The notes under the pieces were generated by a model. That model was not told the origin of the DNA. It made no database searches and was given only the letters and a program-made list of their open reading frames with translations. Positions 42,100-64,000 of a DNA stretch of 64,000 bases are shown here, piece by piece. The DNA is from Paenibacillus sp. MMS18-CY102 (GTDB lineage: Bacteria; Bacillota; Bacilli; Paenibacillales; Paenibacillaceae). The DNA lies in contig NZ_WSTC01000006.1 in assembly GCF_009789195.1 (NCBI RefSeq), forward strand, positions 8,126-72,125, given 5' to 3'. A program made the translations under genes and the position numbers. Each line of letters begins with the position of its first letter. Within the stretch, counting starts at the first letter, position 1.

Positions 42100-42798
42100 G
42101 TGAAGGGTCAGTTAATCATCTTCGAAGGAACTTGCTGCACGGGTAAAACTACGGTTTTACATCCGGTATGTAAAGAATTTCCGCATGTCATAAAGTACGA
42201 AGAATCGATCCACATGACCGAAAACCCGCTTCCGCCCCCATCCAATCGGATGGAAGCGATCAGAAATGATAAATATTACCTTTCAATTGACGAACAAAGG
42301 TGGGGAAAGGCAATACAGTCTACCCATAATGGGCACCATGTGATCGCAGAACGTTGTGTAATTGGTACGCTTTCAATTTGTTATGGTTACCATAATATTT
42401 TTAGATCATTTCCCCAAGCGGCCAATTTTTTAATTGAAAGCCTCGCTTCAGGCTGGTTCGCCGCACCAAGCGCTTATATATGGTTTAAAGCGGATGCGGA
42501 GGTTATTAAAGAACGGCTAAGCGGGAAGAACTCCAGAAAGCATTTAATAGGGGAAGGGTGGACGAACCCAGAAGCTTTGGAGCGCCAAAATCAATTTTTA
42601 GAGCATTTCTTTTCGCAGACCCAAACTCCGGTTTTTGTGGTGGACAGCAATGAAACAATAAGCAGACGTTTGGAAGTCGTATCTTCCTATATTAAATCGA
42701 TCTTGGAACAGCCTAAGATCGAGCATTATGAAAGCAGTCGCTTACATAGTGAGAAGATTATCTCTTTTATTAAACAGAGTGTGAGGCATTTGGAATAA
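42100..42798 (+). CDS. P-loop nucleoside/nucleotide-kinase-like protein (dNK/dTMP-kinase fold)
   Basis: Walker A IIFEGTCCTGKTT close to the N-terminus. Probable GTG start at 42100 after an AGGAGG RBS; the track ORF starts at 42013. Confidence 0.5.
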   Translation: MKGQLIIFEGTCCTGKTTVLHPVCKEFPHVIKYEESIHMTENPLPPPSNRMEAIRNDKYYLSIDEQRWGKAIQSTHNGHHVIAERCVIGTLSICYGYHNIFRSFPQAANFLIESLASGWFAAPSAYIWFKADAEVIKERLSGKNSRKHLIGEGWTNPEALERQNQFLEHFFSQTQTPVFVVDSNETISRRLEVVSSYIKSILEQPKIEHYESSRLHSEKIISFIKQSVRHLE

Positions 42799-42827
42799 GA
42801 AGAACGGGCAATGAAGAGAACAAACGG

Positions 42828-44423
42828 TTGGTGGTGACGGACATACATTTCTTGGCATTAAAGGATGCATACGACACCTCGTTAGTCGGGGGCAAGGCAG
42901 GTATGCTGGGAAGGCTGATTCGAGCGGGCGTACCGGTACCTGATGGATGGGTGATTTCTACTCAATATTTGGTCAGTTTTTTAACGGGATCGGGATTTCT
43001 TCCAGGGGACTATTCTGGCTTGGTCCAGCTGAATTCCGAGTGTGTGGGCAAAGCTCGAACTATCATACAAACTAGTGCCTGGACGGAAGAACAATTGCAG
43101 GAACTATACCAGCTCTTTAAAAAAATTGAGTTGCCCATGTGCTTGCGGTCATCAGCTGTTTCGGAAGATGGGGAGTATGGAAGCTACGCAGGCATCTATC
43201 GGTCTGAGCTAAATATACGAACCTTTGGGGAGTTTCTGGAGGCTATAAGGGAAGTTTGGTTCAGTGCATTCGATGGCCAAGCCATTACCTACCTCCAAGG
43301 GATAAAACATGCACTGCCTTTAATGGCAATCATCATTCAGCCGCTTAGTGGCGTGTCGTGCGCAGGTGTAGCCATATTGGAAAATGGCCATCTGCAAATA
43401 TCGGCGGCATTTGGTCTCGGATTAGGCGTTGTTTCCGGAAGAGTGCCATCGGATAGTTACAACTTGTATCCTAATGATGCTCACCCCGAAATCATCGTGG
43501 GATACAAAAATGCATGTTATCTCGCTAATCCAGATTCGGGCTTCATTACGGAGCAAGATTCCATCTTGTATCCACCGAAGCAAACCCTGTTGCAGGTAAT
43601 GGAGACGGACGATCGGCATGCGATTGTGAAGTGCCGCATCGAAGATGGGATGGCTTCTGAACGAGTACTGGATGAGAGCAGGCTGGGCAATCTTGTACAA
43701 AGGATCAAGAAGGTCGCCTGCGATGTCCTCCAGGGTGGGTCATGGGATTTTGAGTGGTTCTTCGATATCTCGGGACGGCTCTATTTTACACAGGCGAGAC
43801 CCCTTACCGTGTCTTTCATTACATATGCGGAACAAATGGACCGCAGTGGATCTTATCTGAAAGGGCAGCCAATTGCACCTGGAACGGGAACGGGAAGAGC
43901 GACTTTCATTCGAACGGATGCTGATTTGGCAAATGTTTTGGAAGGGGACGTTCTAGTCATGGCATATATCCCGGACTATTACATGGGCGTTCTGTCCAAA
44001 GCTTCGGGAGTAATTCTTAAGGAAAGCTCCTCACTTAGCCATTGTGCGATCGTTGCGAGAGAGTGGAAGATTCCATGTGTCGGCGGGATATCTCCGGAGA
44101 GTATTTCTCCAAAGTGCATATATACCGTGAACGGCTGGACAGGAGAAGTCAGCATAGAAGAGATAGCGAACGCGAGAGGGCTTCACGAGATTGCATCACC
44201 AGGTATTAACCTGCTGCCGTGGCTGATTGCATCTTCCGTTTTAATTTTTAATAACCCTGCGAGGCAAAGGCCTGTTCAAAATATGCTTATGCCGCTGTAC
44301 CGAGAACGGAGCCAGCCTGACTATGGAACCATTACCCCTTTTTTGGACAACAGAACGGAACATGGACGTATATGTTCGGCGTTGCTATCGCATCTGTCGG
44401 CTGCAGGAAAGGAGCATCAGTAA
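42828..44423 (+). CDS. PEP-synthase/pyruvate-phosphate-dikinase-like phosphotransferase (ATP-grasp-type N-domain + phosphohistidine swivel domain, no PEP-binding barrel)
   Basis: N-terminal LVGGKAGMLGRLIRAGVPVPDGWVIS (PPDK_N-like). C-terminal mobile domain GVILKESSSLSHCAIVAREWKIPCVGG with the conserved phospho-His. Confidence 0.6.
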   Translation: MVVTDIHFLALKDAYDTSLVGGKAGMLGRLIRAGVPVPDGWVISTQYLVSFLTGSGFLPGDYSGLVQLNSECVGKARTIIQTSAWTEEQLQELYQLFKKIELPMCLRSSAVSEDGEYGSYAGIYRSELNIRTFGEFLEAIREVWFSAFDGQAITYLQGIKHALPLMAIIIQPLSGVSCAGVAILENGHLQISAAFGLGLGVVSGRVPSDSYNLYPNDAHPEIIVGYKNACYLANPDSGFITEQDSILYPPKQTLLQVMETDDRHAIVKCRIEDGMASERVLDESRLGNLVQRIKKVACDVLQGGSWDFEWFFDISGRLYFTQARPLTVSFITYAEQMDRSGSYLKGQPIAPGTGTGRATFIRTDADLANVLEGDVLVMAYIPDYYMGVLSKASGVILKESSSLSHCAIVAREWKIPCVGGISPESISPKCIYTVNGWTGEVSIEEIANARGLHEIASPGINLLPWLIASSVLIFNNPARQRPVQNMLMPLYRERSQPDYGTITPFLDNRTEHGRICSALLSHLSAAGKEHQ

Positions 44424-45472
44424 TGGGCTGGTCGTTCAGGGAGGATTCCGTAATCGTTGAAGAAGAATACAGAAGCCGGTTTTGTTGCGAGTTGTATCAA
44501 GCGGGGACTAATAACGTGCCTAATCTTTTCTTTCAACAAAATGAACCTTACGGAGAATGCATCAGTTACCGGTCGCTGGTTATTCCTAAGGACCGATATA
44601 TGAGTGTTTCCGGTGAGTTGAGGAACCTTATTAAATCGGATTTGGCTTACAAAAGAGAGCTTCATTCGATTACGTGGAGTACGCTGAAGAAATTTTCTAA
44701 AATGGCCTACGCCTTGGAGAGAGGCGTAAAATCAGAGACGGTGACCCCTGAATTTTTGGATTATGCTGTGCGTATATGTGGGGAGACATTAGGGTTGTGT
44801 GAGTTTAACGGCGCATTGCCAGTCACATGGTATCGCTCCAAGCTTGAGGAAATCAGTGCGATGGGACCTCATAACATTGAATTAGAACATTTTTATTACT
44901 CAGAAGTCATGCCTCACCGGCTGCTGGTGCGCATGGGAAAACTATTGCTCTTGAAGGAATACTTTTCTCACAATGGCCAAGTATCTGGGGATGCCATCGA
45001 GCATTTCATCCGAAGGTTTGGGCTACATGATCCAGAGTGGTCCGATCCATTGGCTTTGAGGCAGTGGCAGAGAAAAGAATATATCGTTCGGGAGATTCAA
45101 ACTATGGCTAAGCAAATGTCGATGGAGATGGTTAAGTTCGAGCTTGATCAGCTAATAAGCAATCGAATCGACAGCACAATCAGATATCGGCAGAAGCTGG
45201 CACAAGTCGCTGAAAATATGCTGGCCAACGATAGGAGCAAGGCAGAAATCTATAATTTTATTAGCGCGTTGGCCGTCGTCTCTTTAGCGACTACGGAAGA
45301 GGAGTATCGGCATATTATTCAAGACCATTTTTGGCGAAGTATCGGACAAATCGCTAGAGCGCTTGATCTGCCTACCGCAGTCATTTCCCGTGAAGATTTG
45401 TTGAGTTCGTTTGCGAAGCGAAGGAGAACGGCGTTTCATTTCTCGCGTAACCCTCGAATGGAGTGTGTGTAG
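44423..45472 (+). CDS. hypothetical protein (349 aa), translationally coupled to the upstream phosphotransferase
   Basis: ATG overlaps the upstream stop; AGGAAAGGAG RBS. No motif recognised. Confidence 0.4.
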   Translation: MGWSFREDSVIVEEEYRSRFCCELYQAGTNNVPNLFFQQNEPYGECISYRSLVIPKDRYMSVSGELRNLIKSDLAYKRELHSITWSTLKKFSKMAYALERGVKSETVTPEFLDYAVRICGETLGLCEFNGALPVTWYRSKLEEISAMGPHNIELEHFYYSEVMPHRLLVRMGKLLLLKEYFSHNGQVSGDAIEHFIRRFGLHDPEWSDPLALRQWQRKEYIVREIQTMAKQMSMEMVKFELDQLISNRIDSTIRYRQKLAQVAENMLANDRSKAEIYNFISALAVVSLATTEEEYRHIIQDHFWRSIGQIARALDLPTAVISREDLLSSFAKRRRTAFHFSRNPRMECV

Positions 45473-46471
45473 ATGAGCAAAGTATTAGTCGTCGGTGGAG
45501 CCGGTTATATTGGCTCAGTTTTGTTGGAGCAACTAGTGGAGCAAAACTATGAAGTTACCATTGTGGATACTTTTTTGTATGGCAAAACGGCTATTCCCAA
45601 AGCATGTGTGACTGTGCAGTCCGATATGAAGCATCTGGATCCGAATATCATGCGGGATCATGAGGCGGTTATTAATTTAGGAGGCTTTTCGAATGATCCG
45701 ACAGCTAACTACAATCCCGAAACGAATTGGGAGTTAAACACCCATTGTGCTGTCGCATTAGCTGAAATGTGCAGGAGCCAGGGGATACCGAAATATATTT
45801 TGGCAAGTTCCTGTTCGTTATATGACCGTCAAAACCTGGACAGTGATTCGGATGAGTTGTTGTCGGAGACCAGCCGGATTCAACCGGTCGGCCATTATTC
45901 GCAATCGAAATTCGCAGCGGAGAACAGCATTAACCGTTTGCGAACGGCCGAATTTACGCCCATCATCCTGAGGAAAGGGACAGTGTTTGGGCTTTCGCCG
46001 CGCATGAGGTTTGATCTTGTGGTGAACACGATGATCAAAGATGCCATTGTAAAGGGCAAAATCTGCTTGCACAAAGGGGGCGAAATGTGGCGCCCAATGA
46101 TCGAGGTAAAAGATGTTGCCCATGCGTATATCCGAGCACTTCAAACCAATATTGGGCTAGAAGATAATATTTTTAATATAAGTTATAAGAATTTTCGGAT
46201 TTCTGAAGTAGGTCTTCGAGTCATTAACGAATTGAAACGGCAAGGATGCGAATGCGAGATCGAAATGGACTATTCCCTCGAAACGACACGCAATTATCGG
46301 GTTAATAACAGCAAAGCTAGGGAAGTTCTTGGTTTCTCGCCTTCTATTGAAATCGAACAGGCCGTCGCGGACATCTATCAAAAATATAAAGCGAATTTTG
46401 AAGAACTGATGCATCCGAGACAATACAATATCGAGTGGATGAAATTGGTCAGTCTCGTAAAATCTTCGTAA
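45473..46471 (+). CDS. NAD-dependent epimerase/dehydratase (extended SDR; nucleotide-sugar 4-epimerase/4,6-dehydratase-like)
   Basis: N-terminal VLVVGGAGYIGSVLLEQL Rossmann motif and a YxxxK-type active-site region (YSQSK). Confidence 0.7.
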   Translation: MSKVLVVGGAGYIGSVLLEQLVEQNYEVTIVDTFLYGKTAIPKACVTVQSDMKHLDPNIMRDHEAVINLGGFSNDPTANYNPETNWELNTHCAVALAEMCRSQGIPKYILASSCSLYDRQNLDSDSDELLSETSRIQPVGHYSQSKFAAENSINRLRTAEFTPIILRKGTVFGLSPRMRFDLVVNTMIKDAIVKGKICLHKGGEMWRPMIEVKDVAHAYIRALQTNIGLEDNIFNISYKNFRISEVGLRVINELKRQGCECEIEMDYSLETTRNYRVNNSKAREVLGFSPSIEIEQAVADIYQKYKANFEELMHPRQYNIEWMKLVSLVKSS

Positions 46472-46487
46472 TAGGAGAGAGGGCATT

Positions 46488-46994
46488 ATGGATCACATGA
46501 CATTCGAAAATAAAGCATTATATAAACAAAAACCGAATCATGCCACCATACAAGGGGTGAAGTTTAAAGAACTGGCCGCCCGAACGGATAACCGAGGCTG
46601 GCTAACGGAACTGTTGAGGGAAGATTCAGAGGATTATATTCCTTTTGGGCAACTTTATCTCGTTAACAATTATCAGGCTAATGTTATTCGCGCATTTCAT
46701 ATGCATTTTGAACAAGATGAGGTGTTTTTCGTTACAAACGGCGTGATTCAATTCATTCTTGTGGACGAACGGGCAGAGAGTCCCACGTATAAGCATTTGA
46801 ATAGTTTTGTGATGGATGCAAGCCGGCCAATGGCTCTATGGGTGCCAAGAGGAATTCAGCACGGTTCAATGGCTTTGATGAATGGATCACAAATTACAGC
46901 AGTTACAACGCAGCCTTACAATGCTGAAAAGCCGGATGAGTTGAGGAGGCCATCTGATTATTATGGGCAAATATGGGGGCTAGGCGGATGGTGA
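46488..46994 (+). CDS. cupin-fold nucleotide-sugar epimerase/ketoisomerase (RmlC/FdtA/WxcM-like)
   Basis: QLYLVNNYQANVIRAFHMH and a cupin barrel; size (168 aa) fits the dTDP-sugar 3,5-epimerase / 3,4-ketoisomerase families. Confidence 0.5.
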   Translation: MDHMTFENKALYKQKPNHATIQGVKFKELAARTDNRGWLTELLREDSEDYIPFGQLYLVNNYQANVIRAFHMHFEQDEVFFVTNGVIQFILVDERAESPTYKHLNSFVMDASRPMALWVPRGIQHGSMALMNGSQITAVTTQPYNAEKPDELRRPSDYYGQIWGLGGW

Positions 46995-47851
46995 AAAAAA
47001 TTGCGATTCTTGGAGCAGCCGGAATGCTTGGAAAAGCGTTTGCCCAGAGGCTTGAACCTGGAAAATTTCATGTGACGGCGTTGGCTAAAAACCAATTGGA
47101 TGTAACGGATGCAATAGCTGTTGCGGATGCCCTGCGATCACTAAAGCCCGACTTGGTGATCAACGTGTCCGCTTTTATGAATGCTGACCGCTGCGAGAAA
47201 TTCCCGGAAAAAGCATTTCTCGTGAATGCGTTGGGCGCAAGAAACGTTTCAAATATATGTGAGGAAATTAAAGCGGCGCATCTTTGGTTCAGTTCCGATT
47301 TTGTATTCGATGGTTATACCAACAAGCCATACAGTGAGCATGATGGGACAAACCCGTTATCGGTCTATGGCATGACCAAATTAAACGGCGAGACTGCGAT
47401 TAAGAATCATTGTTCCAGGCATTTTATTATCAGAACGTCCTCGCTGTACGGTGTCCAAGGGAGTAATTTCATTGAACGAATGCTGGAGCGCGTTCAGCAA
47501 GGATTGAACGTCGAAGTTGTGGATGATTTGTTTATTTCACCAACCTATGTCGAGGACTTGGTTCGCATCTCCATTGATATTTGGGAGCAGGGTTTAAGCT
47601 ACGGCACCTACCACGCAGCCAATGAAGGCGTGACATCCTGGCATGGCCTTTTAGAGGAAGTTTTTCGTTTCTTGGATCTAAAGCAGAGAATCGAGCCTAT
47701 TTCAATAAGCCAACGTGTTAACGATTTGAATCTTGCGCGAAGACCGATTTATTCGGCACTCAGCAGCAAAAAGCTGAGTGAAGCAGGCATTGCAAACGCC
47801 AGTTGGCAGGAAAGTGTCGGCCGGTATTTGATCGCCAGAAATTATAGATGA
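46988..47851 (+). CDS. dTDP-4-dehydrorhamnose-reductase-like (RmlD-type SDR)
   Basis: KKIAILGAAGMLGKAF N-terminus and RmlD-like length. The start overlaps the upstream gene. Confidence 0.6.
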   Translation: MVKKIAILGAAGMLGKAFAQRLEPGKFHVTALAKNQLDVTDAIAVADALRSLKPDLVINVSAFMNADRCEKFPEKAFLVNALGARNVSNICEEIKAAHLWFSSDFVFDGYTNKPYSEHDGTNPLSVYGMTKLNGETAIKNHCSRHFIIRTSSLYGVQGSNFIERMLERVQQGLNVEVVDDLFISPTYVEDLVRISIDIWEQGLSYGTYHAANEGVTSWHGLLEEVFRFLDLKQRIEPISISQRVNDLNLARRPIYSALSSKKLSEAGIANASWQESVGRYLIARNYR

Positions 47852-47864
47852 AGGATGGTGCCGC

Positions 47865-48644
47865 TTGAAAGTAGGGTTGATTGTGAGCACGGGATTTGAC
47901 CTATCGAAAATAGCAGAGCAATGGGATGGCATCAATTGTGAGACGCAATGGGGCAATATCCCTTTCCGTAAAGCTAACGTAGGCGACCTAACGATCTATG
48001 CGGCTACCCGGAACGGGGCAAGCTCATGCGTCCCTCCGCATAAGGTCAATTACAAGGGAATTATGGCATCCTTTAAGAAACTCGGCATAGCCCAGATTGT
48101 ATCCTCTTCCGTTGTAGGTTCGTTAAATCCGGATATTCGGCCAGGAGACGTTGTAATACTAGATCAGTTTTTGGATTTTACTAAACGTACGCCGTTTACG
48201 GCTTTTGAGCATGAGTTTGCCTTTTGCGATTTTACGGAGCCCTACTGTTCGCGCCTACGAGCGCTTCTGATTGGCGTGTGTGGCCAATTAGAAATCGAGC
48301 ATCATAAGTCGGGCTGTTATGTCGGCGTTGATGGTCCAAGGTATGAGACCGCTGCTGAAGTTAGGATGTTTCACCGGCTTGGAGGAGACGTAGTAGGCAT
48401 GACCAATGTGCAAGAATGCATCATGGCCCGTGAGAGTGGGATTTGTTACTCCTCTGCTGCTTTAGTGGTGAATTATGGGGCTGGCATTGCTGGTCCAGTA
48501 ACGAGAAAGGATTGTTATGAACAAACATTAAAAAAGATCGGTGAACTGGAGGATCTCATAGCCGGGGTAATCGTTCAATTGAGAAACGTTCATGTTGAAT
48601 GCAGTTGTTCGCAAGTGCCATTGGATTTGATTACATACAAATAA
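47865..48644 (+). CDS. 5'-methylthioadenosine/purine-nucleoside phosphorylase family protein (MTAP/MtnP-like)
   Basis: Long collinear match to MTAP. HKVNYKGIMASFKKLGIAQIVSSSVVGSLNPDIRPGDVVILDQFLDFT aligns with [48 protein letters not shown]. Also GVDGPRYETAAEVRMFHRLGGDVVGMTNVQE. Confidence 0.75.
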   Translation: MKVGLIVSTGFDLSKIAEQWDGINCETQWGNIPFRKANVGDLTIYAATRNGASSCVPPHKVNYKGIMASFKKLGIAQIVSSSVVGSLNPDIRPGDVVILDQFLDFTKRTPFTAFEHEFAFCDFTEPYCSRLRALLIGVCGQLEIEHHKSGCYVGVDGPRYETAAEVRMFHRLGGDVVGMTNVQECIMARESGICYSSAALVVNYGAGIAGPVTRKDCYEQTLKKIGELEDLIAGVIVQLRNVHVECSCSQVPLDLITYK

Positions 48645-48696
48645 AGGCTGGAGGCTTGCTTGGATGCAGGCGAAAAAGTACAAGGGAGGAACCCCC

Positions 48697-50670: not shown

Positions 50671-50694
50671 TGCCACTGGGGAGAGTGAACAAGC

Positions 50695-51354
50695 ATGACA
50701 TGGAACGAATTCATTAAAGGTTTAGAAAGCTTGGATTGGAAGCAAGACACGCCTGAAACCTTCAATAAAGTGGAGGCACTCTTAAAAGGCATCTCACAAA
50801 ATCCCGAAGAGTTGGAGAAGAGATGCCAAGAAATTGTTTCTAATCCAGATCTCTTGCAGAACTATAAACCTCACATGAGCTATCCTAACAAGATCATGGA
50901 TATATTTGTTCTTTATCTTGCGCCTGACAACGGTTTCGCAGTACGGATGCACAGGCTGAAGACGAAGCAGGATAACGCTCATAAAATCCCTCAAGTGCAC
51001 AGCCATGAATGGTCCTATTCGACTCTTATACTGAAAGGTTCTTATCAGGAAAGAAACTATCAGGTAAATTCGATGTCGGAGGAAAACCATACGGCGCAAT
51101 TGGCGTTAATCGAGGATCACGTATTAACAGCAAACGAAATCAATACGGGCATGGCGGGCACCCCGCATATCACTATTAATCATGAAGAAGAGAGCTGCAT
51201 CACTTTATTTGTAAGAGGGAACTTCCAAGGGACAGGCTTTAAAGTCTATCAAATGGAAGAGGGTACCTTCACGTTTAGCGATGGAAAATTCAAGCAGGCA
51301 GAGGAGACTGTCCTTTGCCGGGAACTTATGCGCATCGGCCGACTACAATCTTGA
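50695..51354 (+). CDS. cupin-fold protein, cysteine-dioxygenase-type-I-like (HxH motif)
   Basis: IPQVHSHEWSYSTLILKGSYQE resembles the CDO-type metal-binding HxH...L.G motif. Weak assignment. Confidence 0.35.
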   Translation: MTWNEFIKGLESLDWKQDTPETFNKVEALLKGISQNPEELEKRCQEIVSNPDLLQNYKPHMSYPNKIMDIFVLYLAPDNGFAVRMHRLKTKQDNAHKIPQVHSHEWSYSTLILKGSYQERNYQVNSMSEENHTAQLALIEDHVLTANEINTGMAGTPHITINHEEESCITLFVRGNFQGTGFKVYQMEEGTFTFSDGKFKQAEETVLCRELMRIGRLQS

Positions 51355-51373
51355 CAGAAGTGGAGAGCACATC

Positions 51374-54007: not shown

Positions 54008-54967
54008 ATGCGCTACTTGAACGAAGAGGATATCAAGTCGATTGGGATGCCGTGGGAAGATCTGATCGCAGCCATTGAGGCTACAGTCGATTGTATGAGA
54101 GCGCATGACTATGTCCAGCCTGTCAAACCGTATTTGAGATACCGTAACCCTGATAATCGAATTATTGCAATGCCTGCATTTGTAGGGGGGGCGGTTGAGG
54201 CGGCGGGCATCAAGTGGATATCTAGCTTTCCAGACAATCATCAAATGCAGCTTCCCAGAGCGCATAGTGTAGTGATACTCAATGAGCCAGATACAGGGCA
54301 ACCTCTAGCCATTATTAATACAGCATTGCTGAGCATTATGAGGACGGTGGCAGTATCCGGTTTCTTCGTCAAGGGCTATATGGCGGCAAGAAAGCCGTGC
54401 AAGGTTAAAGTCGGCATAATAGGCCTTGGCCCGATTGGAACGCATCATTTGAAGTTTTTTGAGGACATTTACGGACAATGGATAGATGCTTTTTTGCTTT
54501 ATGACGAAAACCCGATGAAGCTGGACGGCTTAATGGATAGGGATCGCATGACAATAACACCAACATGGGAAGAAGCGTACATTGAGGCTGACATTGTATT
54601 AACATGTACAACAGCTAAGAGGCCTTATATTTGCCTTCCACCCAAGAAAGGGGCGCTTCTCTTAAATGTATCGCTGCGAGATTATGGATCGCAAATATTT
54701 GATTCTGTCGAACATGCAATTATTGTCGATAACTGGACTGAGGTTTGCAGGGAGAATACGGATATTGAAAAGATGCATCTTGAACGAGGATTAAAGGAAG
54801 AGGATACATGCAGCATCACGGATCTGGAGCAGGGCATATGGCATCAATGGCTTGGCGCCGATCACCCGATTATGGTGAACCCGATGGGAATGGCGTCTTT
54901 CGATATTGCAATCGGCAAGTATTATTTGAACAAGGCCATAGAGAAGGGAATTGGAACCATACTTTAG
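54008..54967 (+). CDS. ornithine-cyclodeaminase/mu-crystallin family NAD enzyme, SbnB-like
   Basis: OCD-family size and Rossmann region (KVGIIGLGPIGTHH). Start MRYLNEED after an AGGAG RBS. Confidence 0.65.
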   Translation: MRYLNEEDIKSIGMPWEDLIAAIEATVDCMRAHDYVQPVKPYLRYRNPDNRIIAMPAFVGGAVEAAGIKWISSFPDNHQMQLPRAHSVVILNEPDTGQPLAIINTALLSIMRTVAVSGFFVKGYMAARKPCKVKVGIIGLGPIGTHHLKFFEDIYGQWIDAFLLYDENPMKLDGLMDRDRMTITPTWEEAYIEADIVLTCTTAKRPYICLPPKKGALLLNVSLRDYGSQIFDSVEHAIIVDNWTEVCRENTDIEKMHLERGLKEEDTCSITDLEQGIWHQWLGADHPIMVNPMGMASFDIAIGKYYLNKAIEKGIGTIL

Positions 54968-54983
54968 GACGGAGGATAAAAAG

Positions 54984-56780
54984 GTGGTATCTGTAGACAG
55001 TTCTGCACCCCAACGCATGAAAGAACGGATGATTTTGCGCATCTACTGGTGGGTTCTTTCGTTCTTGTTTCCTTACAAATGGCAGCTGTTAACTGTGCTC
55101 GCATGCAGCATGGTGATTTCTGGAATTGAGCTCGCCATCCCTAAATTTATCGAGCATTTAATTGACCAAATTATGTCCGTCGGCCATTTTTCGAATTTTG
55201 GCGAAACACTCGCTGTGATGGCGGGTTTGCTCATTATTATGTTCGGCATATCTGCCCTGCGGATGCTCGTTCAGCGCCACATGCAGGAAAAGGCTGCTAG
55301 CGATTTGCAATTCCGGATTATTCAGCAACTGCGTACGTTAGGCTATTCTTATTTTGAAAAGCATGCCGTAGGCGAGAGCCTGTCACTCGTGAACACGGAA
55401 TTAAACGCTGTACAAAACATATATCGCAGTGCATTCCCAAGCATGGTCAATGAATTAATATTTGCCGCACTCTCGTTCGGGTTTATGTTTTCGATCCATG
55501 CGGGGTTGTCCTTATTGATCATCCCGTTTTTCGGCCTGTATTATGTGATGGGCCCTTATTTCGAGAAGAAGGCAGCTAACGCGCAAGCGGAATGGGGAGA
55601 GAATCGGATCCGCTACAACCGCAAGATTTACGAGAGCGTGTCGGCGATCTCGGAGCTAAGGGCGAACGGCGCCCAGCCGTGGGACTATCGCCAATTTATG
55701 GACAAGCGCCAGGCGATGGATGACGGGATGGTTCGAACGTTCTGGTATTCCTTCCTGCGCGGTTCTGTACGCCGGTTTTGCAATAATCTCGGGGCTATCG
55801 CAATCTTCATAGTTGGCTTCTATCTCATCAAAGACGGGGCGATCAGCATCGGGGCTTTTACAGCCTTTATGCTGTACTATTTCAACTCGATCTTTAAGCT
55901 AACGGTCGTAGTCACCCTGATCACCGAGCAAAGGCTGCAAATGGTTCAAGCTAAGCGGATTTATGATTTCATGCATCTTGAACCGGAAGTGAAGGAGAAA
56001 GAGAATGCTCGGGCTATTGGCCATGTCGAGGGCAAGATTGATTTTGACCGGGTTTCGTTTCACTATGGCGATGGAAGCCATGCGATTATTCATGATTTTT
56101 CGTTATCGGTCCAAAGCGGGGAGAAGGTTGCGTTGGTTGGATTAAGCGGTGGCGGAAAGTCGACGCTTACTAAATTAATTGGCCGTTTCTATGATCCGAA
56201 ACAGGGTGAGATTCGTCTCGACAATGTCCCCCTGGCCGACATGAAGCTGTCGGATCTGCGAAACAGCATGGGTTTTGTGTTCCAAGATACCTTCTTGTTC
56301 GGAAGCACGATTGAAGAGAACATCAGGTTCGGCAACCCGGATGCATCCGATGAAGAGGTTATAGCAGCGGCTAAGGCAGCGTATGCAGATGAATTTATCC
56401 AACAGCTGCCTATGGGATACGCCACGGTTGTGGGCGAGAGAGGGGTCAAGCTATCTGGCGGCCAGAAACAGCGGATATCAATTGCGCGCATGTTTGTCAA
56501 AAATCCTTCGATCGTCGTTTTGGATGAAGCGACCTCCGCACTCGACAATATAAGCGAGTTAGAAGTGAAGAAAGCATTGGACGCCTTGCTGCAGGGCAGG
56601 ACGACCATTGCTGTCGCACATCGGTTGTCTACGATTGCTAATTACGACCGGATCGTCGTTGTTCATGAGGGGAAAGCAGCCGAGGTTGGCAGCTATAACG
56701 AGTTGCTTGCGTTAGGCGGCATTTTTTATCAAATGGTTCATGGCAACGATTCGACTGCAATACTGCCGGAGGTGATGTGA
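54984..56780 (+). CDS. ABC exporter, fused TMD-NBD (type I exporter half-transporter)
   Basis: Six TM segments then Walker A GLSGGGKST, signature LSGGQKQR and Walker B VVLDEATSALD. GTG start after a GGAGGA RBS. Confidence 0.75.
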   Translation: MVSVDSSAPQRMKERMILRIYWWVLSFLFPYKWQLLTVLACSMVISGIELAIPKFIEHLIDQIMSVGHFSNFGETLAVMAGLLIIMFGISALRMLVQRHMQEKAASDLQFRIIQQLRTLGYSYFEKHAVGESLSLVNTELNAVQNIYRSAFPSMVNELIFAALSFGFMFSIHAGLSLLIIPFFGLYYVMGPYFEKKAANAQAEWGENRIRYNRKIYESVSAISELRANGAQPWDYRQFMDKRQAMDDGMVRTFWYSFLRGSVRRFCNNLGAIAIFIVGFYLIKDGAISIGAFTAFMLYYFNSIFKLTVVVTLITEQRLQMVQAKRIYDFMHLEPEVKEKENARAIGHVEGKIDFDRVSFHYGDGSHAIIHDFSLSVQSGEKVALVGLSGGGKSTLTKLIGRFYDPKQGEIRLDNVPLADMKLSDLRNSMGFVFQDTFLFGSTIEENIRFGNPDASDEEVIAAAKAAYADEFIQQLPMGYATVVGERGVKLSGGQKQRISIARMFVKNPSIVVLDEATSALDNISELEVKKALDALLQGRTTIAVAHRLSTIANYDRIVVVHEGKAAEVGSYNELLALGGIFYQMVHGNDSTAILPEVM

Positions 56781-56784: not shown

Positions 56785-58497
56785 ATGAAATGGTTATTAA
56801 CGTTCATGATGCCAAGGAAATGGTTTCTGTTGTTGTCGATCGGCGTAATGGCCCTAGAATCGATATGCGGCATTCAAGCCGTCGCGCTACAGCAGAAATT
56901 CATTGATTCCGTCATTATTAATCAACAATATGGCCTATTTTGGCCTACGCTTGGGTGGATTTCCGCCGCATTTTTACTTCACGCCTTATTGTTCACGTTA
57001 GGGCCGCACACGACCCATCTGAATATGGCTTACTTTCATAAAAGGCTGGCGGGGCAGTTTATGAAAACGATCTATCGGCTGCCGATGTCCAAATTACGCA
57101 AAGAACGGTCCGGCAGCTATGTGCAATTTTTCTCTAACGATATCGAGAACGTGTATGGATTGCTAGGCAGCGACATCGCGCGGGGCATGCAGCAGCTTAT
57201 TGCGGCCGTCTTGTTAATTGCCATTGTAGCGAAGGCCAATATGATGATGCTAGTTGCCTTATTCTTGTTTATCGTTGTTTACATCGGAATGGGCAAGTAC
57301 TTTTCCTCCAGAATGAAGAAGGCAGCAAGAGCGGTGCAGGAGAATCGGTCGGCACTCGTCGTTCAATTGGAAGAATCGATCTCAGGTACACGGGAAGTTA
57401 TTGCGTTCCACCGGGAAGAGTGGGAGAGAACCCAGTACAAGAACGTATTCCAGCGATACTACGAGAGCATCATGAACGAGGGCAAATGGCTGAATAAACA
57501 GATGCTTGCAACAGATCCTTTTAAATGGGCGATGAAGCTGCTCGTGATCGTATATGGCGGATACCTTGTCATCAATCATTCGTTGTCTATCGGCATGTTT
57601 GTTGTTGTCTTTCAGCTTACTTCTATGCTGGGGGACACCTGCCAAAGCTTGTTCAACACCGTCATGGGATTGTCTGGAAGAATGGCGAGCGTGGAGAGGG
57701 TTAGAGAGGCGTTAGAGGAAAATATGTTTGATCCTGGCTCTGAGCCTTTAGAAGGTAAAGTATCCTCCTTACGGTTTCAACAGGTTGGCTTTACGTACGA
57801 ATCCGAGGAACAGCAGGTGCTGCATGAGGTTACCTTGGATATGCCGATGGGCAAAAAGATCGCGTTCGTTGGGGCGAGCGGCAGCGGCAAATCAACGGTT
57901 GCCCACTTGCTCTCGCGTTTCTTTGAACCTGGTTCGGGCGAGATTGTTGTCAATGGGATGGATTTAAAAGACATTCGGCGGGATGCGTGGACGGAGCATA
58001 TCGGCATCGTGTTTCAGGACCCGTATATTTTCCCGGATTCCATCGCTAACAATATTAAGCTAGGGCTTGATGCAACTGAGGAGCAAATCACAAAGGTTTG
58101 CCAAGCGGTTGAAATTGATGAACATATCCGCAGCCTTCCGCTGCAGTATGAAACGCCGCTCGGGGAGAGAGGAATGACCTTGTCTGGCGGGCAGCGCCAG
58201 CGAATTGCGCTAGCGCGGGCCCTGCTTCGGGATCCTGAAATATTGATTTTGGACGAAGCCACGTCAGCGCTTGATCTCGAAACGGAGCGAACGTTCCAGC
58301 GAAACCTGGATACGTTAAGGGAAGGCAAGACGACAATCATAATCGCGCATCGGCTGTCGACCATCGAGAATGCAGATGTCATTTATGTCATGCAGAAGGG
58401 CCGGATTGTAGATGCAGGAACGCATGAGGAGCTTATGAGCGAGAGCCGGGCATATCATTCGCTGCTAGCGGCTCACGCGGAGCTGCAGGTGTCTTGA
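56785..58497 (+). CDS. ABC exporter, fused TMD-NBD (partner half-transporter)
   Basis: Walker A GASGSGKST, LSGGQRQR and ILDEATSALD. The gene lies 4 nt after the previous gene. Confidence 0.75.
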   Translation: MKWLLTFMMPRKWFLLLSIGVMALESICGIQAVALQQKFIDSVIINQQYGLFWPTLGWISAAFLLHALLFTLGPHTTHLNMAYFHKRLAGQFMKTIYRLPMSKLRKERSGSYVQFFSNDIENVYGLLGSDIARGMQQLIAAVLLIAIVAKANMMMLVALFLFIVVYIGMGKYFSSRMKKAARAVQENRSALVVQLEESISGTREVIAFHREEWERTQYKNVFQRYYESIMNEGKWLNKQMLATDPFKWAMKLLVIVYGGYLVINHSLSIGMFVVVFQLTSMLGDTCQSLFNTVMGLSGRMASVERVREALEENMFDPGSEPLEGKVSSLRFQQVGFTYESEEQQVLHEVTLDMPMGKKIAFVGASGSGKSTVAHLLSRFFEPGSGEIVVNGMDLKDIRRDAWTEHIGIVFQDPYIFPDSIANNIKLGLDATEEQITKVCQAVEIDEHIRSLPLQYETPLGERGMTLSGGQRQRIALARALLRDPEILILDEATSALDLETERTFQRNLDTLREGKTTIIIAHRLSTIENADVIYVMQKGRIVDAGTHEELMSESRAYHSLLAAHAELQVS

Positions 58498-60332: not shown

Positions 60333-62504
60333 ATGTGGACAAACGTAAAGGGGAAACCATATTTGAACTTATATCCGTTGAAGGATGACTCGGTCGCAAA
60401 TTATTTGATGAAAGAAACTGTTCCATGCGGCAATGATAAACAATTCGAATTGAGGATCCAATGGCAAGATGGGCTTGAAGTGTTGGCGGCTGAGCCGGGG
60501 GTTTCAATAGATGAGGTGCTTCTAGCCGTAATTTGTATTGTTCTTGCAAAATATACCTATCAGAAGCAAATAACAGTTAACGTACGTACTGATGCTGTAG
60601 AGAAGCAGATAGGCTGCAAATTGGACGGGCGTCAGCCTTTTGCTTCCCTGCTCCGTCAGGTCGGGGAACAGATGAACAGTCAAAATGTCGCTGATCGTGT
60701 GGATTCGTGCGTGGAACGAATTGTTTTCTGCAGTTCAGGAAGAGAAACTGTCGATCAACATTTAAAATTCACGCCACTAAGTGGGAAGTTCGGGGTAACT
60801 CTTAAAATTGAGTATAAAGACGTTTTATCATCTGAGAGTGTCTGGCGTATGGGAGAGCATATCCTTCATGTTTTAAACAAGGTTGCTGATCAGCCGGATA
60901 TACTGCTGGAAGCAATTGAGATGGTTTCGCCAATTGAGAAAGATTTATTATTGACACGATTTAACCGAACGGAATCAAGCATTTTGGATCAAACCTTTAT
61001 TCCGCAATTCGAACATATGGTTGAGTGTTACCCTGAGCGAATCGCAATGAAGCATAATGACATTGAAATTAGTTATGCGCATGCAAACCGTGCAGCGAAT
61101 CAGTTGGCTCGTTATTTCCTGGATCAGGGAATAACAACGCAGGCGTTTGTTGTCATTGCGATGCCGCGATCCCATCTTTTTGGAATCTGTGTATTGGCTT
61201 TATGGAAAATACGAGCGATATATGTGCCGGTAGAACATGATTACCCGAAAGAGAGACTGGCCCAAATACTAGGTGAATGTGAAGCTGCTCATATTCTGAC
61301 ATCATCCCATTCGGTGCGGCACGAAGGCGTTACGGCTATCCAAATAAATGATGAACTGCTTCAGGCCATTGCTTTGCTGGATGATAAGAACGTGGTACAG
61401 AATTATTTAATGGAAGATATATCCTATGTTATATATACTTCTGGATCCACTGGAAAACCAAAAGGCGTGATGATCGAACATCGGGGAATGATGAATCATC
61501 TGCTTGCCAAAATTGAGGATTTCAGCATTACAGAGCAAACCGCCGTTGCGCAGATGGCCTCCCAGTGCTTTGACATATCGGTTTGGCAACTGTTCGCACC
61601 GCTGATAGCTGGCGGAAGGACGGTTATTTATGAAAAGCAGGCCGTAACGGCAGTGAAGACGCTTGTCCACCAACTTATTGCTGACCGGATTTCAATTTTG
61701 GAGATTGTCCCTTCCTACCTTGCGGCGATGCTAGAGTTTCTAAAGAGAAGAACCGTCAAGTTGGAACATTTGCAACTGCTGATGGTCACTGGTGAGATTG
61801 TAAAGCCGTTTTTGCTCGAAACGTGGTTTCAGCTCTACCCAGAGATTCCTTTCGCCAATGTTTATGGACCGACAGAAGCCTCAGATGATATAACGCACTA
61901 TTTCTCGGATAAAGCCTTGCTGGCTGATTATGTTCCGATTGGGAAGCCGATTCGAAATATGACTGTGTACATCTTTGATCGATTTGATAACCTGTGCCCG
62001 GTTGGGGCAGTAGGTGAGATATGTGTTGCCGGAGATGGGGTTGGACCGGGGTATGTCCGTAATATAGAGAAAACTAATGCGGTCTTTGGCATTGCTCCAT
62101 TTCAGAATGAATGTGTCCGAATGTACAGAACAGGCGATCTCGGATACTGGCTGTCGGACGGAAATATTCGTTTTATAGGGCGTAAGGATAATCAAGTAAA
62201 GGTTAAGGGGTACCGAATCGAATTGGAAGAAATAGAGAATACCTTCATGAGGATTGCAAATGTTCAGGAGATCGCTGCCGACGTGATCAATCATGATGGC
62301 GGCAATGCAATTGCCGTATATTATGTACATGATCGGGAAATGGATATTCCAGCAGTCATTCAAGCAGCCAGACAGGTGTTGCCTGAATACATGATACCAA
62401 TCCGATTTATCCGAATGGAGCATATGCCAACATTAGTAAGCGGGAAATTGGATAGAAAACAACTTCAGAAACATGCGCTTGCTTATAGCCTGGGGGATTC
62501 ATGA
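60333..62504 (+). CDS. stand-alone adenylation (AMP-binding) protein with about 230-aa N-terminal condensation-domain-remnant-like extension
   Basis: A-domain cores YTSGSTGKPKGV (A3), YGPTE (A5), YRTGDL (A7) and GRKDNQVKVKGYRIELEEIE (A8). The N-terminal region EVLLAVICIVLAKYT resembles the C-domain segment that precedes A domains. Confidence 0.75.
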   Translation: MWTNVKGKPYLNLYPLKDDSVANYLMKETVPCGNDKQFELRIQWQDGLEVLAAEPGVSIDEVLLAVICIVLAKYTYQKQITVNVRTDAVEKQIGCKLDGRQPFASLLRQVGEQMNSQNVADRVDSCVERIVFCSSGRETVDQHLKFTPLSGKFGVTLKIEYKDVLSSESVWRMGEHILHVLNKVADQPDILLEAIEMVSPIEKDLLLTRFNRTESSILDQTFIPQFEHMVECYPERIAMKHNDIEISYAHANRAANQLARYFLDQGITTQAFVVIAMPRSHLFGICVLALWKIRAIYVPVEHDYPKERLAQILGECEAAHILTSSHSVRHEGVTAIQINDELLQAIALLDDKNVVQNYLMEDISYVIYTSGSTGKPKGVMIEHRGMMNHLLAKIEDFSITEQTAVAQMASQCFDISVWQLFAPLIAGGRTVIYEKQAVTAVKTLVHQLIADRISILEIVPSYLAAMLEFLKRRTVKLEHLQLLMVTGEIVKPFLLETWFQLYPEIPFANVYGPTEASDDITHYFSDKALLADYVPIGKPIRNMTVYIFDRFDNLCPVGAVGEICVAGDGVGPGYVRNIEKTNAVFGIAPFQNECVRMYRTGDLGYWLSDGNIRFIGRKDNQVKVKGYRIELEEIENTFMRIANVQEIAADVINHDGGNAIAVYYVHDREMDIPAVIQAARQVLPEYMIPIRFIRMEHMPTLVSGKLDRKQLQKHALAYSLGDS

Positions 62505-63673
62505 TAATGATCGATTTAAAAAATAAACTGTCTCACGCCGTCGATAATATTATTGCTAAACATGCTGCCGATGTAGATAGACAGTCAAGATTTCCATTGG
62601 AATCTATCAACGCTTTGAAGGATATTAAGCTATTGGGCGCTTATATTAAGCGAGAAGATGGCGGGCTAGGCTGCACGTTGTCTGACATTGCCGGCATGAC
62701 CATGATGATCGCCCAAAAATGCGCGTCTACCGCCATGATTTTTGCCATGCACCACATTCAAGTCGCGTGTATCATGCATCACGAGGAGAGTAGCAGCTTT
62801 AAGGGGTATTTGAAGGAAATCGCTGACAAGCAATTGCTGCTTGCTTCGAATACGTCTGAGGTAGGCACAGGAGGAGATAATGGGCGGAGTATCGCAGGTG
62901 TCGAGTATGTGGGTCCAAGATGCACGCTTCTCAAAGATGCTTCGATTATTTCCTATGGCGCTTACGCGGATAGCATTTTGGTCACGGCCAAGAAATCCCC
63001 GGACGCGCGCACGACAGATCAAGTGCTGATATTAATGAAAAAGGAAGAGACTGAGCTTACAGAGACCGGAGTATGGGACACTCTTGGGATGCGGGGCACA
63101 TGCAGCCCGCCATTTCAAATAAAGGGTTCCTTTCCCATAGAAAATATTTTTAATACGCAATTCAAAACCGTGCTTTCCCAAACAATGGTGCCGGTATCCC
63201 ATATTCTATGGTCGTCCTGCTGGCTGGGAATCGCAACTGATGCTGCCGACACGGCGAGAAAGTATGTGCAATCCAAAGCGCGGAAAAGCAAGCCCTATCT
63301 TCCAGATACGAGATTGGCGGAAATGAACAATAGTTTGCAGTTACTAAACAGCCAATTGATTCATTGTTTGGACACATATAAAGCGTTGCTTGAATTGCCA
63401 GAAGAGCATCGGAAGAGTGAACTAACCAGCACACCTGTTTTGTTGAAGTGGAATGCTTTAAAGATGAATGTTTCGAACGATGCAGCAGGGATTGTGCATC
63501 GTGCGATGCAGATTTGTGGCATTTCATCTTACCAAAATAACGGTCAATACACCTTGGCCAAACATCTGCGTGACATTCATTCGGCGAGCTTGATGATCAA
63601 TAACGAGCGTTTAATGGAAACCAATGCATCTTTATTATTAATTTATAAAAATTCTGATCATCCATTGTTCTAA
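62501..63673 (+). CDS. acyl-CoA-dehydrogenase-family flavoenzyme (acyl/aminoacyl-S-carrier-protein dehydrogenase-like)
   Basis: ACAD fold, about 390 aa. The start ATGA overlaps the A-protein stop. Confidence 0.65.
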   Translation: MIMIDLKNKLSHAVDNIIAKHAADVDRQSRFPLESINALKDIKLLGAYIKREDGGLGCTLSDIAGMTMMIAQKCASTAMIFAMHHIQVACIMHHEESSSFKGYLKEIADKQLLLASNTSEVGTGGDNGRSIAGVEYVGPRCTLLKDASIISYGAYADSILVTAKKSPDARTTDQVLILMKKEETELTETGVWDTLGMRGTCSPPFQIKGSFPIENIFNTQFKTVLSQTMVPVSHILWSSCWLGIATDAADTARKYVQSKARKSKPYLPDTRLAEMNNSLQLLNSQLIHCLDTYKALLELPEEHRKSELTSTPVLLKWNALKMNVSNDAAGIVHRAMQICGISSYQNNGQYTLAKHLRDIHSASLMINNERLMETNASLLLIYKNSDHPLF

Positions 63674-63690
63674 GAAAGCGGGGAAGTGGC

Positions 63691-64000
63691 ATGGGCATCA
63701 CCTTGGAAGCGAGACTGTTAATTATTCTAGGTAAATCGACACTTAGTTACGAGGAGATCGAAGAAGCCAAACACATTATGGAAAACCGGCACTTTCACAT
63801 ACCGCGATTTTTTAGGTTAATATTCGAACATAAAGTGGCTACGTTTGTCTATCAGAATTTGCTCCGCCATGAGCTTACTAATTATATAAAGCGTAAATAC
63901 CGTCATGTTCTGGAAATTTATTGCGCGGACATAACAAGACGATTTACGGCCATTAATAGGGAAGTGGATTGCTTAGTTCGCAATTTCGCAGAAAAGCAAG
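63691..64000 (+). CDS. hypothetical protein, 3'-truncated by the window end
   Basis: The open frame begins MGITLEARLLIIL and runs to the window edge. Confidence 0.3.
   Translation, partial: MGITLEARLLIILGKSTLSYEEIEEAKHIMENRHFHIPRFFRLIFEHKVATFVYQNLLRHELTNYIKRKYRHVLEIYCADITRRFTAINREVDCLVRNFAEKQ

Follow-up and report, generated by a model that had tools for sequence, protein, structure and literature searches.

We describe an orphan biosynthetic gene cluster of Paenibacillus sp. MMS18-CY102, located in a 64,000-nt stretch of contig NZ_WSTC01000006.1 (RefSeq assembly GCF_009789195.1, positions 8,126 to 72,125; hereafter, the window). From position 42,100 to the end of the window, 19 genes on the plus strand form a dense array (Table 1) composed of two parts: a conserved ten-gene cassette and an interchangeable aminoacyl-carrier module. 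The cluster is genuine, coherent and very rare; its logic resembles that of phosphate-bridged conjugates and its gene set is unlike that of any pathway compared. By analogy with characterized enzymes, we give even odds to the cluster directing, from a single operon-like unit, the synthesis and export of a carbamoylated sugar or nucleoside phosphate or phosphoramidate that carries an acyl group derived from L-2,3-diaminopropionate (L-Dap), and we would place much less confidence in any specific structure than in this general scheme.

Organization of the gene array

Gene families were assigned through profile searches against Pfam and NCBIfam, complemented by motifs read directly from the translations. 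The list of open reading frames (ORFs) and their translations define an array that is unbroken through position 63673, with a nineteenth ORF that opens at 63691 and continues past the window end. When starts supported by ribosome-binding sites are used (42100, 44423, 46988, 51374 and 54008), every junction in the array lies between -17 and +29 nt. The dense, one-strand array of about 22 kb reported by the initial annotation, and its continuation beyond the window, are hence confirmed; the array measures at least 22 kb, its 3′ end is open and its right border falls outside the window. The genes located 5′ of it encode a catalase, a DNA-alkylation repair protein, a DUF4317 protein, an M29 peptidase and a GNAT protein, and since these are unrelated to the array we set its left border at about 41.7-42.1 kb.

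The earlier account of gene order and nearly all of its family calls also hold, with two amendments: the 515-aa protein listed as hypothetical contains a BtrH_N domain, and the adenylation protein described as stand-alone carries a condensation-domain remnant. No glycosyltransferase, non-ribosomal peptide synthetase (NRPS) or polyketide synthase (PKS) was detected among the genes of the 22-kb array, in line with the earlier remark that no multimodular NRPS or PKS was in view, and no ORF on the opposite strand of the array has a family match. A scan of the window with Rfam returned no match, promoter and terminator scans remained at chance level, and PADLOC defence models matched none of nine of the ten proteins tested, the P-loop protein yielding only a sub-threshold match to VakA.

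The first part of the array (42,100-53,011) contains the ten genes of the cassette and is separated by 14 nt from the second, which encodes SbnA and an SbnB-like protein, the BtrH-like protein, a peptidyl carrier protein (PCP), the adenylation (A) domain and a flavoenzyme with acyl-CoA dehydrogenase (ACAD) fold; both ATP-binding cassette (ABC) exporter genes lie within that stretch.

Relatives of the locus and exchange of the amino-acid module

All ten genes of the 42100-53011 segment recur in a metagenome contig (L004), in shuffled order and with 35-69% identity. A further contig (L010) is identical to L004, which has a G+C content of 56%, and the metagenome scan provided only that organism and a fragment. 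L004 additionally encodes an RmlA-type NTP_transferase, a second thymidylate-kinase-like protein and a free-standing version of the dikinase 2 middle domain, together with a divergent unit comprising an M16 peptidase, a 504-aa PF14907 protein, a GNAT protein and a major facilitator superfamily (MFS) protein.

Paenibacillus sp. 598K (L005) harbors at least six cassette genes and both exporters, at 35-62% identity, before the fetched stretch ends. Its genes are arranged as dikinase 1, the overlapping orthologue of the 349-aa protein gene, a PF14907 gene, a gene for a protein with a class-II aminoacyl-tRNA synthetase (aaRS) core and one for a 95-aa carrier protein, followed by dikinase 2, the cupin, both ABC exporters, the short-chain dehydrogenase/reductase (SDR) and the RmlC-like gene. 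Each ABC half-transporter of the window has a 42% orthologue in 598K, with order preserved. The aaRS-core and carrier proteins of 598K stand in place of the SbnA/SbnB, A-domain, PCP, ACAD-fold and BtrH-like proteins of the window; encoded beside a carrier protein and devoid of an anticodon-binding domain, the 598K aaRS-like protein looks biosynthetic.

A PF14907 gene is present in the window, in L004 and in L005, that is, in all cassette versions with enough flanking sequence, and also in L001, a Paenibacillus stellifer locus discussed below. No glycosyltransferase occurs in the window or in the L005 cassette and none was called in L004; one is found in a Deinococcus plasmid locus (L012) that shares part of the cassette. 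The genes are thus linked in the only relatives found, and conservation as a unit applies to the ten-gene cassette, complete in L004, and not to the whole block proposed initially, the second part being strain-specific. Judging from these sequences, the cassette is a rare, mobile, conserved ten-gene unit with which the exporters and the PF14907 gene travel, and the SbnA/SbnB, A-domain, PCP, ACAD-fold and BtrH-like genes are specific to the MMS18-CY102 version.

Dikinases, the 349-aa protein and the PF14907 gene

Both phosphoenolpyruvate (PEP)-synthase-like enzymes possess an ATP-grasp domain and a swivel-domain histidine; among solved structures, they are closest to PEP synthases and rifampin phosphotransferase. 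Dikinases of the pyruvate phosphate dikinase (PPDK)/PEP-synthase type transfer the beta-phosphate of ATP to a histidine and from this phosphohistidine to an acceptor, converting ATP to AMP and Pi. One PPDK-like enzyme, TalE, phosphorylates the N-terminal amine of Leu-Trp to generate the phosphoramidate of phosphoramidon, to which L-rhamnose is then added; PPDK homologues also exist in the clusters for agrocin 84 and phaseolotoxin, and Cj1418 is an amide kinase (PMC6482885). The two window enzymes probably constitute the key chemistry of the cluster rather than accessories to it, in the form of phosphoryl transfer and possibly N-P bond formation.

Dikinase 1 lacks a third, substrate-binding domain and has orthologues in L004 (41%), L005 (37%) and the Deinococcus plasmid L012 (38%). 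Dikinase 2, whose domain order we take to be that of rifampin phosphotransferase, has three close family members among 5.8 billion proteins: itself, a 598K protein (51%) and a metagenome protein (47%). Its middle domain (residues ~305-522; window 49576-50229) also exists as a separate 234-aa gene in L004 (9297-10001), just 5′ of the full-length dikinase 2 gene and with 32-34% identity, and this stand-alone copy suggests an autonomous, probably ligand-binding module. Its derivation from a duplicated part of the ATP-grasp domain was considered and found weak (hhalign E 7e-4, probability 27%).

The gene for the 349-aa protein begins within the stop of dikinase 1, and the two adjoin and overlap in the window, in L005 and in L012. 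The protein has no Pfam, NCBIfam or Protein Data Bank match; three matches, including itself, were found in 5.8 billion proteins, and BLAST adds the L004 orthologue as a fourth member. Its predicted structure has a mean local confidence (pLDDT) of 67 and fold searches with it were uninformative, including a Foldseek match to rifampin phosphotransferase at E 0.04. From its gene adjacency to dikinase 1 we propose that it may be a partner or substrate subunit of that enzyme. The idea that it represents a detached substrate domain has only this adjacency in its favor and was discarded, as hhalign detects no homology with the dikinase 2 middle domain. On the 669-kb plasmid of Deinococcus sp. QL22 (NZ_CP097150, 12000-30400), which constitutes L012, insertion sequence elements adjoin the dikinase 1/349-aa pair and its neighbors include genes for a carrier protein, an ABC-2 transporter, an acyl-CoA ligase, a glycosyltransferase and hydrolases, with an MTAP-family gene 8 kb away and a nucleoside deaminase gene nearby.

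PsmN, from an uncharacterized nucleotidyltransferase family, is needed for hexose attachment to the phosphate that a phosphorylated lasso peptide carries (PMC6993621), and in one phosphonate gene family a PF14907 gene and a thymidylate kinase gene flank the PEP mutase gene (PMC8942020).

Sugar, nucleoside and carbamoyl genes of the cassette

The P-loop protein is 37% identical to its L004 orthologue. The SDR, with orthologues of 46% (L004) and 53% (L005) identity, reads SSCS...YSQSK in place of the T-D-E triad of 4,6-dehydratases and obtains its best NCBIfam score as GalE, which argues that it is not a 4,6-dehydratase. The RmlC-like gene is the best conserved of the cassette (69% in L004, 62% in L005). 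Aligned to 3RYK and 2B9U, its product retains the catalytic His and has Glu for Lys73 and Ala for Tyr133, and it reaches 46.5 bits against a cut-off of 155.75 for TIGR01221. RmlD scores 265.8 bits with TIGR01214, above the cut-off of 224.05, and is 40% identical to its L004 orthologue. An RmlA nucleotidyltransferase was found neither in the 42-64 kb segment nor in the ten genes upstream, and no RmlB 4,6-dehydratase with a T-D-E triad is present, the only other SDR being GalE-like.

The phosphorylase scores 181 bits against an MTAP equivalog cut-off of 274.85, which places it in the fold family and not among canonical MTAP enzymes. Its adenine-binding DYD motif (Asp220/Asp222) is replaced by NYG and its RHG motif by RNG, the corresponding motifs of the L004 orthologue being NLV and RSG; the Asn of NYG presumably recalls 6-oxopurine phosphorylases. 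Orthologue identities are 35% (L004) and 42% (L012). The families initially assigned to the sugar and phosphorylase genes therefore stand, with the qualification that three of the products (phosphorylase, RmlC-like protein and SDR) depart from the canonical forms. The analogy with noviose pathways that had been drawn is weak, given that the cluster has no 4,6-dehydratase, no glycosyltransferase and an RmlC-like protein without two catalytic residues.

The carbamoyltransferase is 59% identical to its L004 orthologue, and its location in the conserved cassette makes a sugar or nucleoside more probably its substrate than Dap.

Thiol-dioxygenase-like cupin

The 219-aa cupin has no Pfam or NCBIfam match, whether to CDO_I or to PCO_ADO, so that the CDO-like assignment made earlier holds by fold and not by sequence. 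Its predicted structure (pLDDT 96) finds only thiol dioxygenases among the top Foldseek matches, at template modeling (TM) scores of 0.6-0.7 and 12-16% identity; the matched solved folds comprise mercaptosuccinate, cysteine and 3-mercaptopropionate dioxygenases and plant cysteine oxidases. The model shows helices at the N terminus, a cupin fold and an iron site of three His, with H102, H104 and H158, together with R84, invariant in 25 relatives, and the family has 43 representatives in 1.84 billion proteins. The cupin dioxygenase SbzM converts cysteine into a sulfonamide building block (PMC6331615), an instance of this type of enzyme generating a phosphate-mimicking group.

Two homologues lie outside the cassette. 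In a Joint Genome Institute metagenome contig (L006, G+C 37%), a cupin gene with 40% identity sits directly 3′ of the gene for a 2129-aa NRPS (A-PCP-C-A-PCP-C) and 5′ of one for a 378-aa Pol-beta-type nucleotidyltransferase, indicating that a cupin/nucleotidyltransferase pairing exists apart from the cassette. On a 71-kb plasmid of Nocardia terpenica (L014; NZ_CP023779, 11230-14859), a 31% homologue belongs to a five-gene operon of hypotheticals, with one P-loop-like and one methyltransferase-like gene, adjoined by an IMP cyclohydrolase gene. A fixed pair of cupin and nucleoside monophosphate (NMP) kinase was judged unreliable, the neighboring kinases in L007 and L008 looking like housekeeping cmk and tmk.

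Aminoacyl-carrier module

SbnA scores 398.8 bits with TIGR03945, above the cut-off of 349.95, and its SVKDR pyridoxal phosphate (PLP)-lysine motif is readable. The adjoining SbnB-like protein matches TIGR03944 over its full length at 299.6 bits, against a cut-off of 326.9. The A protein retains a condensation-domain remnant of about 200 aa from which HHxxxDG is absent. Its specificity code reads DIWEMTVDDK, with three acidic pocket residues; the code was extracted by alignment to a fragment of GrsA, which itself yields the canonical DAWTIAAICK. The acidic pocket and the adjacent SbnA/SbnB genes lead us to predict an A domain for L-Dap or a similar short diamino acid. We take DIWELTADDK to be a code for 2,4-diaminobutyrate, and our literature search on the A-domain code found nothing.

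The BtrH-like protein scores 39.6 bits with BtrH_N, above the cut-off of 29.7. It has one relative in 5.8 billion proteins, a P. stellifer protein with 32% identity, and Cys25, His125 and Asp143 are kept in this sole homologue. By analogy with BtrH, we propose that it may act as a carrier-protein-dependent acyltransferase. The P. stellifer homologue (L001; CP009286, locus 1-11530) is encoded beside a different orphan cluster that contains genes for PF14907, carrier protein, ketosynthase, two radical-SAM, Orn/DAP decarboxylase, APH-type kinase and SDR proteins, so that the trio of BtrH-like, PF14907 and carrier proteins recurs. BLASTP detects no similarity of the window protein to a DUF1839 protein of L003 or to a divergent 528-aa protein of L005, which itself has no Pfam match.

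The ACAD-fold protein is equally near to "type 2" ACAD-fold monooxygenases/nitrososynthases and to true dehydrogenases. By eye it is without the Glu of the medium-chain acyl-CoA dehydrogenase type, and on sequence it may be either a dehydrogenase or a group-D monooxygenase. The PigA model matches it at E 4e-6, with 26 bits against a cut-off of 500. A prolyl-to-pyrrolyl triad (PltF/L/E, PigI/G/A) was rejected on the A-domain code. The closest genomic ACAD-like relative (42%) lies in a Pseudomonadales metagenome-assembled genome (MAG; L003, OZ253950, 8674-13049), directly 3′ of a carrier-protein gene; the DUF1839 gene is located two genes 3′ of it, and alpha/beta hydrolase genes and a polysaccharide-export-type gene are also present. 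The formation of a beta-ureido(dehydro)alanine by SbnA/SbnB, carbamoyltransferase and ACAD-fold enzyme, as in viomycin and zwittermicin, was down-weighted because the carbamoyltransferase accompanies the cassette in L004, where Dap genes are not seen.

Table 1. Genes of the array, with positions given in window coordinates
Product	Position	Strand	Features
P-loop kinase-like	42100..42798	+	Walker A GTCCTGKTT; weak dTMP-kinase/AAA_18 matches; longest ORF from 42013
Dikinase 1, 531 aa	42828..44423	+	PPDK_N ATP-grasp and PEP-utilizers swivel domain, SHCAIVAR
349-aa protein of no known family	44423..45472	+	mostly helical; TEEEYRHI motif conserved
GalE-like SDR epimerase/oxidoreductase	45473..46471	+	SSCS...YSQSK
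RmlC-family cupin	46488..46994	+	Pfam/NCBIfam
RmlD-type 4-ketosugar reductase	46988..47851	+	TIGR01214
MTAP-family nucleoside phosphorylase	47865..48644	+	non-canonical base pocket
Dikinase 2, 668 aa	48664..50670	+	ATP-grasp, ~300-aa middle domain, C-terminal His swivel domain (C629-H630 invariant)
3-His cupin, 219 aa, thiol-dioxygenase (CDO/MDO) fold	50695..51354	+	predicted structure
NodU/CmcH/TobZ-type carbamoyltransferase	51374..53011	+	Carbam_trans_N and Carbam_trans_C
SbnA, PLP enzyme, predicted L-Dap step 1	53026..53997	+	TIGR03945
SbnB-like NAD-dependent dehydrogenase, predicted L-Dap step 2	54008..54967	+	TIGR03944; OCD_Mu_crystall domain
ABC exporter half-transporter 1	54951..56780	+	Pfam, NCBIfam
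ABC exporter half-transporter 2	56785..58497	+	Pfam, NCBIfam
BtrH-like protein, 515 aa	58523..60070	+	N-terminal papain/C39-like BtrH_N domain, C-terminal beta-rich domain
Peptidyl/acyl carrier protein, 78 aa	60093..60329	+	GLDSL
Condensation-domain remnant and A domain	60333..62504	+	Pfam, NCBIfam
ACAD-fold flavoenzyme	62501..63673	+	Pfam, NCBIfam
PF14907 (NTP_transf_5) nucleotidyltransferase-fold gene, 5′ part	63691..64000	+	E 2.9e-5 on 103 aa

Flanking regions

A 153-aa GNAT acetyltransferase is encoded on the plus strand at 41229-41690, about 400 nt 5′ of the cluster, and could serve in self-protection or be unrelated. L004 also carries a GNAT gene, beside its MFS gene, with no BLAST homology to the one in the window. 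The G+C content reaches 0.47-0.53 at 30000-42000, compared with 0.43-0.49 for the cluster and 0.38-0.45 for the initial 30 kb; genes of this segment are ordinary (SPFH, SUFU-like, M29 peptidase, FBP, DUF4317 and catalase). Further upstream, at 28753-30266, a gene for an HNH_2 endonuclease-domain protein is followed by one for an SF0329-family protein, and the two may be a small pair with a mobile or defence role and no relation to the cluster.

Proposed pathway and alternative readings

From the families, linkage, conservation and exchange of modules observed above we infer the chemical steps, their order and a product class in agreement with the tailored sugar- or nucleoside-type small molecule first suggested for this region. 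The MTAP-family phosphorylase, with its non-adenine-type pocket, would interconvert a nucleoside and pentose-1-phosphate, the GalE-like SDR, RmlC-like protein and RmlD would change the configuration of a sugar via a keto intermediate, the NodU-type enzyme would add a carbamoyl group, and the iron cupin, acting in the manner of a thiol dioxygenase, would oxidize some group. The P-loop kinase and the two His-swivel dikinases would install phosphate groups, at least one of which would probably become a phosphoramidate or phosphodiester bridge, as with TalE, and the PF14907 enzyme would probably couple a sugar or nucleotide to phosphate, as with PsmN; such coupling would explain the absence of a glycosyltransferase. 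SbnA and SbnB would supply L-Dap, the A domain would load it onto the PCP, the ACAD-fold flavoenzyme would modify the tethered residue, the BtrH-like protein, with its predicted Cys-His-Asp triad, would transfer the acyl group to the scaffold, and the heterodimeric ABC exporter would secrete the product.

Several observations weigh against this scheme. The RmlC-like protein lacks two catalytic residues and the SDR is no dehydratase, so that a classical 6-deoxyhexose route is not demonstrated. A sugar-1-phosphate nucleotidyltransferase, present in L004, is not seen in the window; its gene may be located past 64 kb, or the role may fall to a housekeeping enzyme. No evident source exists for the thiol that the cupin fold implies as substrate, and the window dikinases are only 27-31% identical to AgnD1/D2 of agrocin 84. 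The 22.7 kb seen of L004 contains no aminoacyl-carrier module, its cassette being accompanied instead by the M16 peptidase, GNAT and MFS genes, and the parallel with PsmN presumes that this protein is a PF14907 member.

A more elaborate version of the scheme, which we offer tentatively and regard as rather doubtful, envisages a new class of compounds in which a phosphate or phosphoramidate bridges an amino acid, exchanged from host to host, and a carbamoylated sugar or nucleoside bearing a cupin-added group. The P-N or P-O links would be made by two dikinases, one of them composed of two subunits with the 349-aa protein, and sugar coupling to phosphate would fall to a nucleotidyltransferase-fold enzyme in place of a glycosyltransferase. 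The amino acid would be Dap, supplied via A-PCP, in the window and a different residue, supplied via the aaRS-like ligase, in 598K, and the products would be protease or aaRS inhibitors.

That the parts are juxtaposed by chance, sugar and nucleoside salvage having come to lie beside a siderophore Dap supply and a small NRPS-like unit, seems very improbable. The two parts do differ in distribution, the second being absent from L004 and replaced in L005, and the promoter and terminator scans are uninformative; nevertheless, junctions do not exceed 29 nt anywhere, including the 14 nt at the part boundary, exporters orthologous to those of the 598K cassette stand in the middle of the second part, PF14907 is found in every version with enough flank, and the window and L005 versions also have an amino-acid/carrier module. 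Siderophore synthetase genes are missing from the cluster. A role in modifying a cell-surface polymer also seems improbable to us; in this reading a deoxysugar phosphate bearing a carbamoyl group, together with an aminoacyl group, would be attached to teichoic acid, S-layer glycan or exopolysaccharide, as in D-alanylation by DltA/DltC, and no diffusible metabolite would be made. The RmlC/RmlD-type genes, the MsbA/PglK-like ABC proteins, the A and carrier pair reminiscent of DltA/DltC, and the carrier protein next to the closest ACAD-like relative in the polysaccharide-type locus of the Pseudomonadales MAG would fit, but the 22 kb contain no glycosyltransferase, polyprenyl-phosphate transferase, polymerase, Wzx/Wzy or MBOAT gene, the distribution is extremely sporadic and includes a Deinococcus plasmid, and the amino-acid module is interchangeable.

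Two further interpretations were considered. A "Trojan horse" aaRS inhibitor resembling agrocin 84, microcin C or ascamycin, with a nucleoside core, two dikinase-made phosphoramidate or phosphate links, a sugar serving as uptake handle and a warhead resembling an amino acid, would account for the two dikinases, whose PPDK homologues in agrocin 84 are agnD1/agnD2, for the nucleoside phosphorylase and the NMP-kinase-like P-loop protein, for the aaRS-like enzyme of 598K and for the GNAT genes beside the window cluster and in L004, GNAT enzymes being used in self-protection of the microcin C/puromycin type. Because only the split dikinase (27-31%) and an ABC protein are shared with pAgK84, no resistant aaRS copy is found in the 22 kb and the 598K protein looks biosynthetic, we rate this interpretation as unlikely. 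The cassette might alternatively tailor a ribosomal peptide, first phosphorylating it and then adding a sugar, as happens in phosphorylated or glycosylated lasso peptides; in the window version a carrier-bound amino acid would take the peptide's place. The M16 peptidase and 504-aa PF14907 protein of L004 speak for it, as do the action of PsmN-type enzymes on phospho-peptides and the presence, among the thiol-dioxygenase relatives (PCO matches), of enzymes for the N-terminal Cys of proteins. With no precursor peptide, lasso cyclase or RiPP (ribosomal peptide modified after translation) recognition element in the window or the L004/L010 flank, and with carrier-protein chemistry clearly in use in the window and in 598K, the probability of this interpretation is low.

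Natural products with P-N bonds or phosphate-linked sugars are few (phosphoramidon, agrocin 84, microcin C and phosmidosine), and several of them are potent protease or tRNA-synthetase inhibitors. If the phosphate-bridged scheme is true, two dikinases and a carrier module operating without a glycosyltransferase would widen the routes to P-N and phosphate links, and first functions would be provided for the 349-aa partner, the middle domain of dikinase 2, the CDO-like cupin family, PF14907 and this branch of BtrH-like proteins. The combination of a cassette with a swappable amino acid suggests a natural product-diversifying system, and mining centered on NRPS and PKS is unlikely to rank such a cluster highly.

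Comparison with known systems

The cluster was compared with known systems through tblastn against pAgK84 and through the gene-family content of the systems named below. The initial view that the combination is uncharacterized is upheld: no characterized match emerged from these comparisons, pAgK84 shares only the split dikinase and an ABC protein, and the literature search returned no paper on strain MMS18-CY102 or on this gene combination.

Agrocin 84 (pAgK84, CP000632), an antibiotic of the nucleotide type, contains a sugar phosphate and two phosphoramidate links; its cluster encodes an SDR, an efflux protein and a PPDK-like enzyme that is split into agnD1 and agnD2. When all proteins of the window, L001, L004 and L005 were searched against pAgK84, only agnD1/agnD2 and an ABC ATPase matched; the window is without an immunity gene of the leucyl-tRNA synthetase type and the other cassette genes have no agn homologue. 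Judged by these sequences, the cluster is not agn-type. On the same kind of evidence it is not a canonical rhamnose operon, having neither RmlA nor RmlB and an atypical RmlC, and it belongs neither to the tal type nor to the butirosin side-chain or staphyloferrin types described below.

The aminoacyl-carrier module recalls two systems. In butirosin biosynthesis (BtrI/BtrH), BtrH delivers the side chain, and the BtrH_N protein of the window is likewise predicted to move a carrier-bound aminoacyl group onto a sugar-type scaffold. In the window, however, the acyl group would derive from Dap and be loaded by an A domain, the BtrH-like protein (515 aa) has an additional C-terminal domain, and no equivalents of BtrJ, BtrK, BtrO/V or BtrG (ATP-grasp ligase, PLP decarboxylase, luciferase-like monooxygenase and gamma-glutamyl cyclotransferase) were found in the window cluster. 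With staphyloferrin B the cluster shares adjacent SbnA and SbnB genes, with SbnA above the equivalog cut-off, but it lacks NRPS-independent siderophore synthetases and multimodular NRPS, and its Dap is predicted to feed a single A-PCP pair. The SbnA/SbnB-type supply of L-Dap is also used in zwittermicin and viomycin/capreomycin.

Rifampin phosphotransferase and the glutamine kinase Cj1418, which act on substrates other than pyruvate, resemble the window dikinases in combining an ATP-grasp domain with a phospho-His swivel domain, yet similarity outside the ATP-grasp domain is low and the substrate domains are unrelated or of no known kind. The phosphoramidon/talopeptin cluster (talCDE; Baulig et al. 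2019, PMC6482885) likewise uses a PPDK-like kinase in a small-molecule pathway without NRPS, and joins an amino-acid unit through phosphate to a 6-deoxy-L-hexose, which implies a sugar supply of the RmlD type. The likeness to TalE is at the level of the PPDK-like family only, each window dikinase also bearing a swivel His, and is offered as an analogy. The talCDE set consists of three genes, for an ATP-grasp dipeptide ligase, the kinase and a rhamnosyltransferase; the window has neither the ligase nor the rhamnosyltransferase, and extends beyond talCDE with two dikinases, a phosphorylase, a carbamoyltransferase, a cupin, a PF14907 protein and a carrier module.

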